The notes under the pieces: model-generated | The model's input: the letters and a program-made list of their open reading frames with translations, nothing else | Databases searched by the model: none | Told to the model about the DNA's origin: nothing | Part shown: positions 13,170 to 63,100 of the stretch, piece by piece | Layout of the letters: every line of letters starts with the position of its first letter | Position numbering within the stretch: position 1 is the stretch's first letter | Made by a program: the position numbers and the translations under genes | DNA from: a virus | Taxonomy: Duplodnaviria; Heunggongvirae; Uroviricota; Caudoviricetes | Virus record (IMG/VR): IMGVR_UViG_2778261375_000003 | DNA length: 64,000 nucleotides | Strand: one strand, 5' to 3'

Positions 13170-13865
13170 ATGACCACTATTACCAAAGAACGTATTGAAT
13201 TGTTCATTAAAAATCCGCTTGAAAACGGGCTTGCTCGTAGCGAACAAATGGAAGTGGCACGGATCGCTTTGGCATCGCTGGAAGCAGAGCCGGTGGCATA
13301 TCAGTATCGCCAGTGGGATGCAGAATATGATGAATGGGGAGAATGGGAAGATTGCGGGGAATGTGCTTTCGAAAGATTCGTTGAGGAAGAGAAATGCCAG
13401 GGGGCAGGTGTTCAGACCCGTAAGCTTTACACCGCCCCTCCAGTGCCGGTAGTGCCAGAGGAAATCAGCATGGCTTCAAAGTTGCCTCTCATGAGTGACC
13501 AGTTGATGTTAGTAGGTTATGTGAAGGGGTGGAACGCCTGCCGCGCAGCCATGCTTCAGTCCGGAAACTTTCGGGAAATCTCGGAAACGTCAACCAACTC
13601 TCCGATAACTCTGACTCCTTTGCCTGGTGGTTTCACCATTGAGGATGCGAAGGAGTTACATGAAGACCTGGTACGCAGCCACATAAGCCAGGCTTTAAGT
13701 GGCGAGAAGATGAAAAAGAAAGATCGTGATGCTGATTTGCTCTGGATTCATGGCGTTATAGTACAGGCAGCGTGGTTTGTGAAAGCCTCACTGGATGCGT
13801 TGCCTGAACCGCTGCGGGAGGAGAAGGGAGGAAGTCCAACTGAAGAAAGTGAAGCCGGACTGTAA
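13170..13865 (+). CDS. Hypothetical phage protein, paralogue B
   Basis: 231 aa; shares MTTIT N-terminus and ARIALASLEAEPVA block with previous gene. Confidence 0.55.
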   Translation: MTTITKERIELFIKNPLENGLARSEQMEVARIALASLEAEPVAYQYRQWDAEYDEWGEWEDCGECAFERFVEEEKCQGAGVQTRKLYTAPPVPVVPEEISMASKLPLMSDQLMLVGYVKGWNACRAAMLQSGNFREISETSTNSPITLTPLPGGFTIEDAKELHEDLVRSHISQALSGEKMKKKDRDADLLWIHGVIVQAAWFVKASLDALPEPLREEKGGSPTEESEAGL

Positions 13866-19936: not shown

Positions 19937-20102
19937 AGTTATCCCACCAGACAGCGAAACGATGAACGGGATTTTTGCAGAGATTGAACGTAAATATGCG
20001 CATCAGCCGATGACGCCAAAAGTTATCGATGAAATGCAACGCGAAGCGGCGCGCCTTGTAAGGCGAGCGACAAACACGAAGGTTACGTTTGTTCGGGACT
20101 GA
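19917..20102 (+). CDS. Hypothetical small protein
   Basis: 61-aa ORF from MARLNVEV between spanins and terminase. Confidence 0.4.
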   Translation: MARLNVEVIPPDSETMNGIFAEIERKYAHQPMTPKVIDEMQREAARLVRRATNTKVTFVRD

Positions 20103-20159
20103 CATTACAGAAGCTCCTTTGATAAGGGGCTTCGATAATGTCACTAAGAGGAAAAATTC

Positions 20160-20909
20160 ATGGCAAAACCGGACTGGGAGGCCATCGAATCGGCATACCG
20201 GGCCGGAGTCCTTAGCCTCCGTGATATAGGTGAGAAATACGGCGTAACAGAAGGGGCTATCAGGAAGAGGGCTAAAAAGCTTGGTTGGGTACGCAGTGGC
20301 GGTACGCAGGTTTGCAAAAATGGTACGCAAAAAAGAAAAGTGCGTACCAGCAGAAAGCCTGCTATTACTGGCCCTACACAAAAAGGTACGCAACCAAAAA
20401 CAGAACCTACACCGGATACGAAACCGATACGCGGAATGCGTACCAATCCCCCGACTAACCCATTCCAGCCCGGTAACCAGCAGGCATTAAAACACGGTGG
20501 TTATGCCCGTCGCCTTCTGCTCAAAGATGAGGTGATAGAGGACGCTAAAGCGTTGACGCTCGAGGACGAATTATTTCGCCTTCGTGCTAACAACCTTGTC
20601 GCTGCAGAGAATATTGGTCGGTGGCTGGTGTCGCTGGAAGATGCTAATGGGGACCAGGAAAGGAAGATGCTGATGGAAAATATCAGCGCCGCCGAGAAAG
20701 CAATGATGCGCAATACAGTTCGTATTGAGTCCATCGTTGGCACGCTTGCGACGGTAGGAAAAATATTTGCTGATACAGCCTACCGCAAGGCCGCTACTGA
20801 TAAGGTGTCTCTGGAGGCTGATCGTCTTCGCCGTGATGCAGGTATTGATGATGGCAATGGAGAGCGTGACCTCAATGACTTCTACTCTGACATCCAAACC
20901 GACGCTTAA
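20160..20909 (+). CDS. Terminase small subunit (HTH type)
   Basis: N-terminal HTH (LSLRDIGEKYGVTEGAIRKRAKKLGW), basic low-complexity linker, directly upstream of terminase large subunit. Confidence 0.7.
   Translation: MAKPDWEAIESAYRAGVLSLRDIGEKYGVTEGAIRKRAKKLGWVRSGGTQVCKNGTQKRKVRTSRKPAITGPTQKGTQPKTEPTPDTKPIRGMRTNPPTNPFQPGNQQALKHGGYARRLLLKDEVIEDAKALTLEDELFRLRANNLVAAENIGRWLVSLEDANGDQERKMLMENISAAEKAMMRNTVRIESIVGTLATVGKIFADTAYRKAATDKVSLEADRLRRDAGIDDGNGERDLNDFYSDIQTDA
20288..20444. repeat. GGTACGCA / TGCGTACC octamer array inside small-terminase gene
   Basis: Direct copies at 20288, 20301, 20322, 20385; inverted copies at 20341, 20437; encode repeated GTQ tripeptides in the linker. Confidence 0.8.
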
Positions 20910-22278
20910 TCCGGCTTTACGTAGTTTCTGGACTACGCGGGCACGTAACAAAGTGCTTTATGGTGGCCGGTCATCGTCAAAATCATGGGATGCCGCTGGC
21001 ATTGCCATATTTCTGTCGAATAAATACACCCTGCGTTTTTGTTGTGCCCGTCAGATCCAGAATAAAATCGAAGAGTCGGTGTATACCCTGCTCAAAATTC
21101 AGATAGACAGGTTTGGCCTGCGGCACCGTTTCCGGATTCTGAACAACAAAATCATTAACCGGGTTACTGGCTCGGAATTTGTTTTTTATGGATTATGGCG
21201 CAACATCGAAGAAATTAAGTCACTGGAGGGGATCGATGTGTTGTGGCTGGAAGAAGCCCACGCACTGACGGAATACCAGTGGAAAATTCTGGAGCCAACG
21301 ATCCGTAAAGAGGGTTCGGAATGCTGGTTCATATTCAACCCCGGACTTGTTACTGATTTCGTCTGGCGCAACTTCGTTGTTGATCCGCCCGAAGGCACTC
21401 TCATCCGCAAAATTAACTATGACGAAAATCCGTTTCTGTCTGACACCATGCTTAAGGTTATCGACGCGGCGCGACGCCGTGATCCGGATGGTTTTAAACA
21501 TGTGTATGAGGGCGTTCCGGAGTCTGATGATGATGCGGCAATCATCAAACTGTCCTGGATAGAAGCCGCAGTGGATGCGCACAAAACGTTAAATTTCGAA
21601 CCCAGTGGAAGAAAGCGTATTGGCTTTGACGTGGCTGACAGTGGTACAGATAAGTGCGCTAACGTTTACCGTCACGGATCCGTTGTTTTCTGGGCCGACG
21701 AATGGAAGGCCAAAGAAGATGAATTACTGAAGAGCTGCCAGCGTACTTATCAGGCGGCGCTGGAGCGTGAAGCAGATATTGTTTACGACTCTATCGGTGT
21801 TGGTGCGTCTGCCGGTGCTAAATTCTCTGAAATTAACGCTGACCGGAAGAGCGAGAATGCATACGCGCGACGTGTGAATTACCAGAGGTTTAACGCCGGT
21901 GCTGGTGTGCATGAGCCAGATGACGAATACAACGGCATCCCCAACAAAGACTTTTTCGCAAATCTTAAGGCTCAGGCATGGTGGCTGGTGGCTGACCGTT
22001 TCAGAAATACGTTTAACGCCATTAACAACGGAGAACAGTATCCTGTGGATGAGCTGATCAGCATAGATTCTCGTTGTCCGTTGCTTGAAAAGCTGAAACT
22101 GGAACTGACAACACCTCATCGTGATTTCGACCGTAACGGACGTGTGATGGTCGAAAGTAAAAAAGACCTCGCAAAACGCGAGATACCGTCACCAAACGTT
22201 GCTGACGCATTCATTATGGCCTTCGCGCCAATTGATACATCGCTGGATATCTGGGAACAGCTGGGGAGACAGGCCTGA
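20848..22278 (+). CDS. Terminase large subunit
   Basis: About 475 aa, directly after the small subunit; ATPase-like N-terminal half and acidic nuclease-like C-terminal half; start (20848/20851/20857) uncertain. Confidence 0.8.
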   Translation: MMAMESVTSMTSTLTSKPTLNPALRSFWTTRARNKVLYGGRSSSKSWDAAGIAIFLSNKYTLRFCCARQIQNKIEESVYTLLKIQIDRFGLRHRFRILNNKIINRVTGSEFVFYGLWRNIEEIKSLEGIDVLWLEEAHALTEYQWKILEPTIRKEGSECWFIFNPGLVTDFVWRNFVVDPPEGTLIRKINYDENPFLSDTMLKVIDAARRRDPDGFKHVYEGVPESDDDAAIIKLSWIEAAVDAHKTLNFEPSGRKRIGFDVADSGTDKCANVYRHGSVVFWADEWKAKEDELLKSCQRTYQAALEREADIVYDSIGVGASAGAKFSEINADRKSENAYARRVNYQRFNAGAGVHEPDDEYNGIPNKDFFANLKAQAWWLVADRFRNTFNAINNGEQYPVDELISIDSRCPLLEKLKLELTTPHRDFDRNGRVMVESKKDLAKREIPSPNVADAFIMAFAPIDTSLDIWEQLGRQA

Positions 22279-23744
22279 TGGCACGAAACAAGCAAGCCCT
22301 GCGAAGAACTGCGCAGGCCACAGCTGATGGTTATGAGAATTTTATTGCCCGCGTAGGGATGCAGACACCTAACCAGCACTCAGCATCCACCTACCGGGCT
22401 AATTTCACCAGTCGTAACCGCATGCTGGTGGAATGGTCCTATCGTTCATCCTGGATCATCGGCGAAGCAGTCGATGCTATCCCGGATGATATGACCCGCA
22501 AAGGCATTCGCATCACTTCGGAAATTGATGCAAAAGATCGTGGCATTCTCGAATCACAACTGGATGAGTTGCAAATCTGGGATGCGCTGAATGACGTGCT
22601 GAAATGGTCGCGCCTCTACGGCGGCGCGGTGGGTTTCATCATGATTGAGGGGCAGGCACCAATGACCCCGCTGCGACCCGAAACCATCGGTAAGGGCAAG
22701 TTTAAGGGGATTCTCCCGCTCGACCGCTGGATGATTGACCCGGTACTGACCCGCCGCATTAAAGATATGGGGCCGGACCTGGGTAAACCTGAGTTTTACG
22801 ATGTGGTGACCACAGCAACGGGAATTCCTGCCTGGCGCATTCATCACAGTCGACTGATTCGCTTTGATGGCGTCACGCTGCCATTTCAGCAGAAGATGAC
22901 CGAGAACGAATGGGGAATGTCGGTTGTAGAGCGTATCTGGGATCGTCTTACCGCGTTCGACAGCGCTACTGTCGGCGCGGCGCAGCTGGTCTACAAAGCG
23001 CATTTGCGCACCTACAGCGTGGAGAAGCTACGCGAGCTTATCGCACTTGGTGGTCCTGCGTATGAAGCGTTGCTGAAGAATATTGACCTGATTCGACAGT
23101 TCCAGAGCAATGAAGGCATGACGCTCATGGACTCGCGGGATAAGTTTGAAACCCATCAGTACAGCTTCAGTGGTCTGGATGACATCCTTTCACAGTTTGC
23201 AGAACAGATTAGTGGCGCTGTTGGTATCCCACTGGTGCGGTTGTTCGGACAGTCCCCGAAGGGATTTTCTACCGGCGATGCAGACCTTGCCAACTATTAC
23301 GACCGGGTAAGCTCGTTACAGGAGAGGCGTTTACGTCTTCCGGTGCGGCGGATACTGGACATCATGCATCGTTCGGAGCTTGGCAAGCCGCTGCCGGACG
23401 ATTTCACGTTTGAGTTTAACCCGCTCTGGCAAATGTCTGATGTCGATCGCTCAACGGTGGCGTTAAACACTACCAACGCAATCAGTACGGCGCTGGGTGA
23501 TGGTCTGATGACACTGAAAGCCGCTATGACTGATTTGCGCGAAAATTCTGACGTAACCGGCATCGGGGCATCCATTACCGACGAGGACATCGAGAATGCC
23601 GAAGATGAAGCGCCGCCCGGCATCGGCGAACCTGATGACGAACCGCAGGAACCGTCAGGCGGAAATCCGCTATCGAACCAGCCTACGCAGGATAGCGCGG
23701 GCGGTCGGAGACATCGTAAATGGTCGCTACGATGGTTCAAATGA
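22278..23744 (+). CDS. Portal protein
   Basis: 488 aa after terminase large (ATGA overlap); acidic C-terminus. Confidence 0.75.
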   Translation: MARNKQALRRTAQATADGYENFIARVGMQTPNQHSASTYRANFTSRNRMLVEWSYRSSWIIGEAVDAIPDDMTRKGIRITSEIDAKDRGILESQLDELQIWDALNDVLKWSRLYGGAVGFIMIEGQAPMTPLRPETIGKGKFKGILPLDRWMIDPVLTRRIKDMGPDLGKPEFYDVVTTATGIPAWRIHHSRLIRFDGVTLPFQQKMTENEWGMSVVERIWDRLTAFDSATVGAAQLVYKAHLRTYSVEKLRELIALGGPAYEALLKNIDLIRQFQSNEGMTLMDSRDKFETHQYSFSGLDDILSQFAEQISGAVGIPLVRLFGQSPKGFSTGDADLANYYDRVSSLQERRLRLPVRRILDIMHRSELGKPLPDDFTFEFNPLWQMSDVDRSTVALNTTNAISTALGDGLMTLKAAMTDLRENSDVTGIGASITDEDIENAEDEAPPGIGEPDDEPQEPSGGNPLSNQPTQDSAGGRRHRKWSLRWFK

Positions 23745-61510: not shown

Positions 61511-63100
61511 TTACTTAATAAGCAGCGGTACGCCCTGGATACGACGGGCTACGCCAGTCGGGCAGCAGGCCCAGACTACTTCCCATTTATCGAATTCCGC
61601 CTGCGTAACTTTCAGCACATACGGTTCTGTACCGTCAGCATCGGGATCACGAGGAGCCACCAGAGCGCCGGAGGCGACAAAGCGATCTAAAAGTTTGGTC
61701 ATCCCTTTAGTCAGGCCAGCCGCAGTAATACCGTCCGGGCTATGCTTCATCTGTCGGGCTAACTGGACAAAGAAACGGCTGATTGCATTCATCAGGGATG
61801 GGACGTGCTGGAAGTGCAGATAGTTATCCTGCGTGCAGCAAGTTAAAGCATCGTCGATGATCATCTGGCCAGAGGTGCCAACAGATACTTTATTGAGACG
61901 GCCCTTGACCATTGCTTCTTCGTCCGGGGTATCTTCCGGATACAGCGGTTGAATTGACGCACGAGCAATGACGGCACGTTCTTCACCAGCCGGTGAGTAA
62001 TGCCAACCGCCGACATCAGAGTTTTTCTTGACGCCACGAGCTTTCGCCGCATACGCCGCGCCAGACAGACCGAAGACCACACGGGATTGGGTCCATTTGT
62101 CTTTGCAGGAGAACGGGTAGTGATAGACAGAACAGCTTACATAATCGGTACCAAGTAAACCGGTACCCTCAACAGCTGTTAGTGCTTCTGCGTACCTTAA
62201 TGTCGGTTTGACATCAAAGAAGCCATCAATCAGGCGATCTGCACAGATTTTACCTAATGCGGTGATAGCCGCATTGTCATAGCAGCCCAGGCCAAGAACA
62301 GCGGTGTACATGTACGGCGCATTGTTCAGCACTTTCACCGCACGCAGGTACGCAGCGGTTGAGATTTTCGACTGATCACCGTTGGTACCACCAGTGAACG
62401 CCAACGATTTTTTGTTTGTTACTTTCGCTGTAGAAATCAGATCTTCATTAACAACCGCGCGCAGATATTTAGAACGAGCTTCCAGAGCCGTAGGCAGATA
62501 ACACAAGCGGCCCATGTCATCTTTCGCTTCTTCCGCCAAAGACACAGTGTGTGTCTCCAGGGTCGTTACCACGCCGAGCGAAGTCGTCTGGGTCAGTTTT
62601 AAGAGGAAGCGTTCATTACCCGCGCTGTCCGCTGTTGCCGTTTCGATGGTTAACTCTCGGGTAGGTGAAATACACGGATCACCATCATCAACGTAGATAG
62701 CAAAGGCTTCGCCACTATCAAGTTCAATTTCAGAACCGTATGGCAACGCACTGTAAGCCGGTTCGCCTGATTCATCGAACATAATAATCGGGAACTTCGC
62801 ATCATCCGGAACAGCGCGAACAACATAACCAGATGTTTGCTGAATAGCTTCGTATACATGGCGAATTGGTTCGAACTGTGAGCCGGAAGACGGCTTCAGC
62901 GGTTCGCCGAGAACATCTTCGTAATTGGACTCAGTAACCGCAAGAACAGTAAACGGCTTGCCACGCGCAAATACGCCAATACCAGCCCACAAGCTGCTAT
63001 TTAATGCAACACCGGTAGATAACGTCGCATCGGCATTGATCGGGCTAACCGCGACGCCGGATGCATTACCTAATGACTGTTGAATTGAATATTGAGACAT
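61511..63100 (-). CDS. Large phage structural protein (possible tail sheath)
   Basis: 529 aa; N-terminal region loosely resembles recalled P2 FI-type sheath N-termini; weak assignment. Confidence 0.35.
   Translation of the reverse strand: MSQYSIQQSLGNASGVAVSPINADATLSTGVALNSSLWAGIGVFARGKPFTVLAVTESNYEDVLGEPLKPSSGSQFEPIRHVYEAIQQTSGYVVRAVPDDAKFPIIMFDESGEPAYSALPYGSEIELDSGEAFAIYVDDGDPCISPTRELTIETATADSAGNERFLLKLTQTTSLGVVTTLETHTVSLAEEAKDDMGRLCYLPTALEARSKYLRAVVNEDLISTAKVTNKKSLAFTGGTNGDQSKISTAAYLRAVKVLNNAPYMYTAVLGLGCYDNAAITALGKICADRLIDGFFDVKPTLRYAEALTAVEGTGLLGTDYVSCSVYHYPFSCKDKWTQSRVVFGLSGAAYAAKARGVKKNSDVGGWHYSPAGEERAVIARASIQPLYPEDTPDEEAMVKGRLNKVSVGTSGQMIIDDALTCCTQDNYLHFQHVPSLMNAISRFFVQLARQMKHSPDGITAAGLTKGMTKLLDRFVASGALVAPRDPDADGTEPYVLKVTQAEFDKWEVVWACCPTGVARRIQGVPLLIK

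Follow-up and report, generated by a model that had tools for sequence, protein, structure and literature searches.

An 8-base word, GGTACGCA, is found in four direct and two inverted copies within 157 bp (20288-20444) of the small terminase gene, terS, of the 64-kb window, that is, of the whole stretch of DNA analysed here. We consider it likely that these copies are binding sites for the helix-turn-helix (HTH) domain of the TerS protein encoded by the surrounding gene, and that together they form the recognition part of the prophage pac. Their identity as TerS HTH sites appears very probable because the repeated word changes in step with the DNA-reading helix in about 200 related phages. The original prediction had pointed to an octamer array of four direct and two inverted copies in about 160 bp, which is confirmed here with exact coordinates and an excess over chance. 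It had also read this array as a candidate pac or terminase recognition site, a reading which is now supported inasmuch as the word appears to follow the TerS helix across unrelated protein backbones.

The genes and domains concerned are the following:

20160..20909, + strand: terS, small terminase subunit, 249 aa (PHROG 370 'terminase small subunit', E=6.8e-95, residues 1-248)
20160..20291, + strand: region coding for the N-terminal HTH, residues 1-44 (AF2 helices 6-15, 20-27 and 31-41, pLDDT 80-89)
20250..20282, + strand: codons of the predicted recognition helix, residues 31-41 (EGAIRKRAKKL), third HTH helix in the AF2 model
20869..22278, + strand: terL, large terminase of Sf6 gp2 / PBSX type (Pfam Terminase_3, E=3.9e-38; start codon uncertain, ORF open from 20767)
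22278..23744, + strand: portal protein gene (Pfam Phage_portal_3, E=6.7e-106)

The gene carrying the array had been taken for a small-terminase gene, and this assignment is borne out by the PHROG 370 match and by the TerL and portal neighbours; terS is located downstream of the lysis genes and upstream of TerL and portal. With TerS as a query, a Pfam search returned sub-threshold HTH matches only (Sigma70_r4 and HTH_AsnC, both weak, at residues 17-41) and no terminase family, a PDB sequence search gave no relevant relative and two chance matches to Cif, and a Foldseek comparison of the AF2 model with the PDB found nothing below E=0.4, with generic helical hairpins only. In this model, a monomer built from a shallow alignment (mean pLDDT 62.8, pTM 0.39), residues 48-104 are predicted to be disordered (pLDDT below 50) and are followed by two long C-terminal helices. 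The array corresponds to codons 43-95, directly behind the HTH-coding part, and encodes the predicted disordered tether which joins the DNA-binding domain to the core. The little sequence constraint on such a linker may be the reason why DNA sites could be accommodated at this place in terS. The HTH domain itself is common to the TerS of 57 phage records, at 40-95% identity. The element is an E. coli prophage, its terS being carried by 207 of 5426 complete E. coli genomes (best match at 99.2% identity, as in E. coli PEC122).

TerL matches the Sf6 gene 2 protein, a headful terminase (PDB 4idh, E=7.3e-79), and is 36% identical to TerL of the pac-type prophage Gally of E. coli LF82. Virion reads of Gally display a headful pattern starting within its own termS, and its pac peak was mapped there by experiment (PMC9928086). 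Gally was rejected as a model for the array site, since its TerS is a different, 140-aa protein, and it supports the TerL type only. Two features required of a pac system can be recognized here: a large terminase predicted to be of the headful type, and a unique cis element within or beside the terminase genes, the array lying inside terS and the looser motif RGTACGCR being at chance level elsewhere. Upstream of terS, positions 20100-20143 form an inverted repeat with 20-nt arms of 85% complementarity and a 4-nt loop (TGACATTACAGAAGCTCCTT / AAGGGGCTTCGATAATGTCA). It begins at the stop codon of the preceding 70-codon ORF, leaves 16 nt between its end and the start of terS, and may serve as a terminator or as a hairpin regulating read-through in the late operon.

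The sites composing the array are listed below with their reading in terS, upper case marking the bases of the word:

20288..20444, no strand: site array, proposed TerS recognition part of pac, with 6 exact octamers and 2 decayed copies
20288..20295, + strand: site 1, GGTACGCA, read tgG GTA CGC Agt (W V R S)
20301..20308, + strand: site 2, GGTACGCA, read GGT ACG CAg (G T Q)
20309..20316, + strand: decayed site, GGTTTGCA, aligned with an intact GGTACGCA in Klebsiella relatives, where it is read V R K
20322..20329, + strand: site 3, GGTACGCA, read G T Q
20341..20348, - strand: site 4, inverted, TGCGTACC on the + strand, read gTG CGT ACC (V R T)
20373..20380, + strand: decayed site, CCTACACA, aligned with CGTACGCA in Klebsiella relatives
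20385..20392, + strand: site 5, GGTACGCA, read G T Q
20426..20433, + strand: possible weak site, GATACGCG, with 1 mismatch to RGTACGCR
20437..20444, - strand: site 6, inverted, read aTG CGT ACC (M R T)

Four direct sites (three intact, one decayed) and one inverted site thus occupy 20288-20348, two direct sites (one decayed) lie at 20373-20392 and one inverted site at 20437, a layout that could be viewed as two groups. The segment 20414-20433, GGATACGAAACCGATACGCGG, contains two near-sites, GATACGAA and GATACGCG, and is invariant in five aligned relatives despite variation in the bases around it; lying between the last direct copy and the last inverted one, the two near-sites may represent weak sites or half sites.

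The array contains six of the nine copies of GGTACGCA present in the window, for which 1.49 are expected in its whole length, and nine copies per window were reached in 0 of 100 shuffles. Outside the array, RGTACGCR has 5 copies against 5.2 expected in the rest of the 64-kb window, a chance level which makes the array the sole cluster. A simple Poisson estimate for six copies in 157 bp is about 1e-17. In a codon-resampling null, where the TerS protein was kept fixed and codons were drawn from neighbouring phage genes (5000 trials), no 8-mer exceeded four copies, GGTACGCA included, and six copies were reached in 0 of 5000. The three exact copies outside the array are located at 62189-62196 (- strand), 62347-62354 (+ strand) and 13670-13677 (+ strand), the first two being in opposite orientation and 158 bp apart within a long minus-strand ORF (61511-63100). 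They are probably coincidental, their total being within chance for the window; alternatively, they may be pseudo-pac sites.

To relate the word to its presumed reader, we assembled a set of about 200 distinct sequences bearing this HTH, drawn from GenBank phages, one genome per species and IMG/VR, and called in each the most frequent strand-collapsed 6-mer in the 200 nt after the helix, using no prior motif. An IMG/VR search for the DNA of distant window-type homologues with other HTHs (P0129, P0160 and P0136) did not find it, and related loci were used in their place. The helix classes and their words are:

xEGAIRK[RK]A. (EG..R): GTACGC, in 124 of 127 (70 of 71 window-type, 54 of 56 HK639-type), in two unrelated C-terminal families
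SDTAIRK.AK (DT..R): GTTCGC, in 18 of 18
TH[GS]A[IV]NKRAK (HG/HS..N): GTATCC, in 18 of 18
[TS]HTAIN.RA. (HT..N): GTTTCC, in L321-L323
NHATILKRAN (HA..L): GTAACC, in 7 of 7 for the HA class, including one NHATIIKKAK
AHNTILKRAK (HN..L): GTGACC, single example
THQAISKRAK (HQ..S): GTTGCC, single example
SHVGI[NT]KRA. (HV): GTTACC, in L325 and L336
SHVSIHKRAK (HV): GTTAAC, single example

In at least 10 helix classes and 36 sequence clusters, word and recognition helix vary together, the helix residues concerned being 2, 3 and 6 (E, G and R, i.e. E32, G33 and R36 in the window). Over these 36 clusters, defined at 80% nucleotide identity, the mutual information between helix class and word amounts to 2.17 bits, and 0 of 20000 permutations exceeded 1.49 bits. 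The flanks are alike in all classes: GT is always preceded, and C always followed, by a purine and not by a pyrimidine, so that the general site can be written R-GT-nnn-C-R. Within one TerS backbone, the layout also stays constant while the word changes: three direct copies and one inverted, with spacings of 15/12/28 or 12/13/16. As HTH and array are adjacent, co-inheritance alone would give their co-occurrence, and it is the joint change of all copies that carries the argument. Erwinia phage 59, Pseudomonas phage PS-1 and Enterobacter phage BHUENT6 illustrate it clearly by their homologous TerS and four identical site positions, copies 1 and 2 being in a V-x frame, copy 3 in another frame (GGT ACG CAG / AGT GAC CAG / GGT AAC CAG) and copy 4 on the other strand. 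In each of the three phages, all four copies are GTACGC, GTGACC or GTAACC, matching the helix. A word that tracks the helix in this way is the pattern expected of TerS binding sites, not of a peptide repeat.

Several phages share the HTH on a different protein. HK639, SEN34, GF-2, Edno5 and several Klebsiella prophages have only the first ~45 residues in common with the window TerS. Between HK639-type phages and the window, the C-terminal halves of TerS are unrelated (BLASTP E=0.91), and so are the TerL proteins (E=1.3). Immediately after the HTH-coding part, the HK639-type phages have three or four copies of GTACGCA, read as V-R-K or V-R-N. In these comparisons, the word travels with the HTH and not with the rest of TerS. 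Two further proteins, P0211 and P0216, carry the same N-terminal HTH (MNRPDWEAIESAYRAGSL... and MSQPDWEAIERAYRAGSL..., respectively) on C-terminal regions unlike either TerS core, one of them Terminase_2-like with a Cys-rich tail, the other of unknown type; judging from these sequences, shuffling of the HTH domain appears to be widespread. Another N-terminal HTH type, unrelated to the first (...GLNY.[ST]ARRYIKK), was observed in L317, L318 and L344-L366 from IMG/VR, fused to window-type or Pfam Terminase_2 small-terminase cores and followed by 4-9 copies of TGCGCA(A/G) at about nt 131-210 of terS, in three frames (A-Q, V-R-K and C-A). This second HTH type with its word TGCGCA suggests that the reader-plus-array arrangement is general.

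Absence of the repeats from close relatives with the same terminase had been named in the original prediction as an outcome that would speak against it. This comparison was run on 61 distinct close terS genes (GenBank phages and IMG/VR); every one of them has retained the array, in the form of 3-10 direct and 0-2 inverted copies of GTACGCA. These genes differ in length (750, 765, 777, 789, 801 and 813 nt, plus one of 753 nt), for proteins of 249 to 267 aa, and in the window and loci L001-L084 the changes occur via gain or loss of GTACGCAAAAAr-type units, locus L077 reaching 10 direct copies. Since gene and protein lengths step by 12 nt and 4 aa, units are gained and lost by slippage while the word is held constant; from this comparison, copy number seems free to drift and the word seems fixed.

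Pantoea phage PdC23 (L100) has a helix of the EG..R class (TEGAIRKQAK) and a window-type C-terminus, and its linker is devoid of the array. Its sites, GGTACGCA, TGCGTACT and TGCGTACT, are found in non-coding DNA 40-70 bp 5' of the terS start:

1431-1458 in PdC23: sites upstream of the terS ATG, which is at 1501
1550-1557 in PdC23: site in the HTH-coding part

Being in untranslated DNA, the upstream sites indicate that the element works as DNA regardless of coding. Two prophage copies from a Candidatus Phlomobacter fragariae MAG (L113 and L133) have an intact EG..R helix and only 2 and 1 copies of the word, respectively; a relaxation of selection on a prophage decaying in an insect-associated host is a possible cause of the loss. 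PdC23, L136, L127, L113 and L133 were considered as rule-breakers and rejected as such, on account of upstream sites, of sites out-counted by another 6-mer, or of prophage decay.

We propose the following mechanism. TerS would assemble into an oligomer via its C-terminal helical core, exposing several flexibly tethered HTH domains, each of which would read one 8-bp R-GT-nnn-C-R site, here GGTACGCA. From the covariation, E32, G33 and R36 would specify the central three bases. The sites being 8-21 bp apart over ~160 bp, weak contacts could sum to a specific nucleoprotein complex on concatemeric DNA. This complex would recruit the Sf6-type TerL, and a cut nearby would start unidirectional headful packaging, as the TerL family suggests. 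With the sites placed in the linker-coding DNA that directly follows the HTH, a reader and its sites are passed on together, as a single unit of ~300 bp. In ring-shaped small terminases, neighbouring HTHs are about one turn apart (PMC4737164), close to the 12-13 bp spacing common in the array, and one may speculate that this spacing fits DNA wrapping. As a counterpoint, specific site reading by a TerS HTH would be atypical for the pac class, as the HTH-domain DNA binding of the SF6/SPP1, P22 and Sf6 small terminases is weak and largely sequence-independent (PMC4737164, PMC9611059). The papers on two relatives, Mulock and PseuP_222, report no termini or packaging data, and a nanopore paper on gut capsid DNA does not cover relatives of the window phage. 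The starts of the GenBank records of Mulock, RCIP0034/0098, PDP110P2, SEN34 and HK639 were considered as physical ends and rejected, a start at terS or terL being an annotation convention.

What the covariation shows is only that the TerS helix reads the sites, not for which purpose. The same sites, located inside or just 5' of the terS frame in every case, which is a typical place for an autoregulator, might be an operator through which the TerS HTH throttles transcription or translation of terS-terL, the true pac being elsewhere. We regard this as unlikely, for recognition of viral DNA is the defining role of TerS and known pac or cosB sites likewise lie in or beside terS in P22, P1 and lambda (PMC9611059, PMC10028697, PMC4669245). 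Furthermore, one or two sites usually suffice for an operator, whereas here there are 5-11, in a number that varies in 12-bp steps, and a second cluster of any repeat was not seen in the window. Autoregulation and packaging recognition by the same binding are not exclusive and could coexist.

A reading in which something other than TerS targets the word (a host or phage regulator, for example, or else a restriction-modification or methylation system), its place in terS being fortuitous, is highly improbable. Its core does contain GTAC, a common restriction-site core, but phages infecting the same host genera have different words, and the word follows the TerS helix, not the host, as GTACGC, GTAACC and GTATCC all occur in Enterobacterales; moreover, a restriction-modification target would be expected to be avoided or to be spread genome-wide, not clustered once.

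The array had been described as encoding a 'GTQ-rich linker', which holds for three of the six copies, direct ones read GGT ACG CAr (G-T-Q); it does not hold for site 1, which is in another frame (V-R, within W-V-R-S), nor for the two inverted copies, read xTG CGT ACC (V-R-T and M-R-T). Over 71 distinct window-type genes, the 538 sites are distributed as 129 in + frame 0, 279 in + frame 1, 2 in + frame 2 and 128 in - frame 2. Array entropy in motif columns is 0.27 against 0.55 between them in window-type genes (p=2e-5), and 0.12 against 0.81 in HK639-type genes (p=2e-6), motif columns being more conserved than neighbouring columns with third codon positions included. The repeat can be taken to act at the DNA level, given its occurrence in two frames and both orientations, the lower variability of its motif columns and the non-coding sites of PdC23. 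The array might otherwise be viewed as a by-product of a low-complexity linker, generated by slippage of a 12-bp G-T-Q-K unit and having no DNA-level function. Slippage does occur, as told by the 12-bp steps in terS length (750 to 813 nt) and the copy number varying between relatives, and the encoded region is predicted to be disordered. But a peptide repeat should keep one frame and one orientation and leave synonymous positions free, which is not what is found; six copies are never reached when codons of the same protein are resampled, and in unrelated proteins that have the HTH in common the word recurs behind it, there encoding V-R within a segment that looks helical. Along with its presence in PdC23 non-coding DNA and the concerted change of all copies with the recognition helix, this leaves the peptide repeat hardly any credence, and it was rejected outright on frames, strands, codon null, PdC23 and concerted change. 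A chance cluster was likewise rejected outright by the shuffles, the codon resampling and the Poisson estimate.

Among known systems, the closest architectural analogue of the array is P1 pac, a 161 bp element inside pacA, which encodes the subunit that recognizes DNA; the element comprises seven TGATCA/G hexamers, arranged as two groups (PMC10028697). The likeness concerns the size, the place in the reader's own gene and the multiple copies of short words, synonymous recoding of which lowers packaging in P1 (PMC10028697). The P1 hexamers, however, contain GATC, with cleavage controlled by Dam methylation and an IHF site between the groups, whereas GGTACGCA and its sister words (GTTCGC, GTATCC, GTAACC and others) have no GATC. 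The terminases also differ, the window having a PHROG 370 TerS and an Sf6-type TerL, and P1 having PacB.

Lambda cosB is the closest in logic, through the covariation of helix and site which is also displayed by the array family. In the N-terminal HTH of gpNu1, the recognition helix reads the cosB sites R3, R2 and R1, of which one is inverted; in lambda, 21 and N15, helix residues and R-site bases differ together and set packaging specificity, and N15 has an extra inverted R copy inside terS (PMC4669245). Similarly, multiple sites appear to be read by a covarying TerS HTH helix in the array family. Lambda nevertheless belongs to the cos phages: it has a cosN nicking site and an IHF site, and its R sites are 16 bp long and located 5' of the gene, whereas the array family combines a headful-type TerL with 5-11 copies of 8-bp sites embedded in coding DNA. 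The window TerL is of Sf6/PBSX type, and the pairing of cosN with a gpA-type terminase that defines lambda does not apply to it.

The pac of P22, a headful phage of Enterobacteria, also lies inside the small-terminase gene and is attenuated by wobble-position mutations (PMC11260489, PMC9611059). It is one asymmetric 22-bp sequence, in contrast to the multi-site array described here, and binding of P22 TerS to pac was not demonstrable in vitro (PMC9611059). In SPP1/SF6, pac consists of direct repeats around the start of the TerS gene (boxA, boxB and boxC), the N-terminal HTHs are carried on a ring around which DNA wrapping has been proposed, and the SF6 DNA-binding domain shows no preference for the box repeats (PMC4737164). 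Unlike this last case, the comparative signal in the array family argues for base-specific reading.

As a putative terminase recognition site made of repeats inside terS, the array belongs to a known kind of element. The family-wide correspondence between helix and word and the cassette-like linkage of reader and site appear to be previously undescribed: a literature search for GGTACGCA gave unrelated primer matches only, and in the literature on small terminase, recognition helix, pac and repeats no description of the sites of this TerS family was found. We lean towards the view that the HTH, together with the array it reads, makes up a self-contained cassette of ~300 bp for packaging specificity. 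The cassette would recombine between unrelated TerS cores (PHROG 370, HK639 and Terminase_2 types) and unrelated TerL, and its code would be simple, positions 2, 3 and 6 of the helix setting the three central bases of R-GT-nnn-C-R.

According to a 2022 review, the contacts of pac-type TerS are weak and sequence-independent, and models have still to explain how bases are read (PMC9611059). If the cassette reading is true, this family would offer what reviews describe as missing, a pac-type small terminase with clear base-specific recognition. It would also explain the frequent location of pac inside terS, reader and site being inseparable by recombination. The readout would be inferable from sequence, as an 8-bp site in 4-11 copies whose central bases follow three helix residues. 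It could serve to predict pac sites and the starts of lateral transduction in prophages of E. coli, Klebsiella, Enterobacter, Pseudomonas and others, and to engineer packaging specificity for phagemid or transducing-particle delivery.
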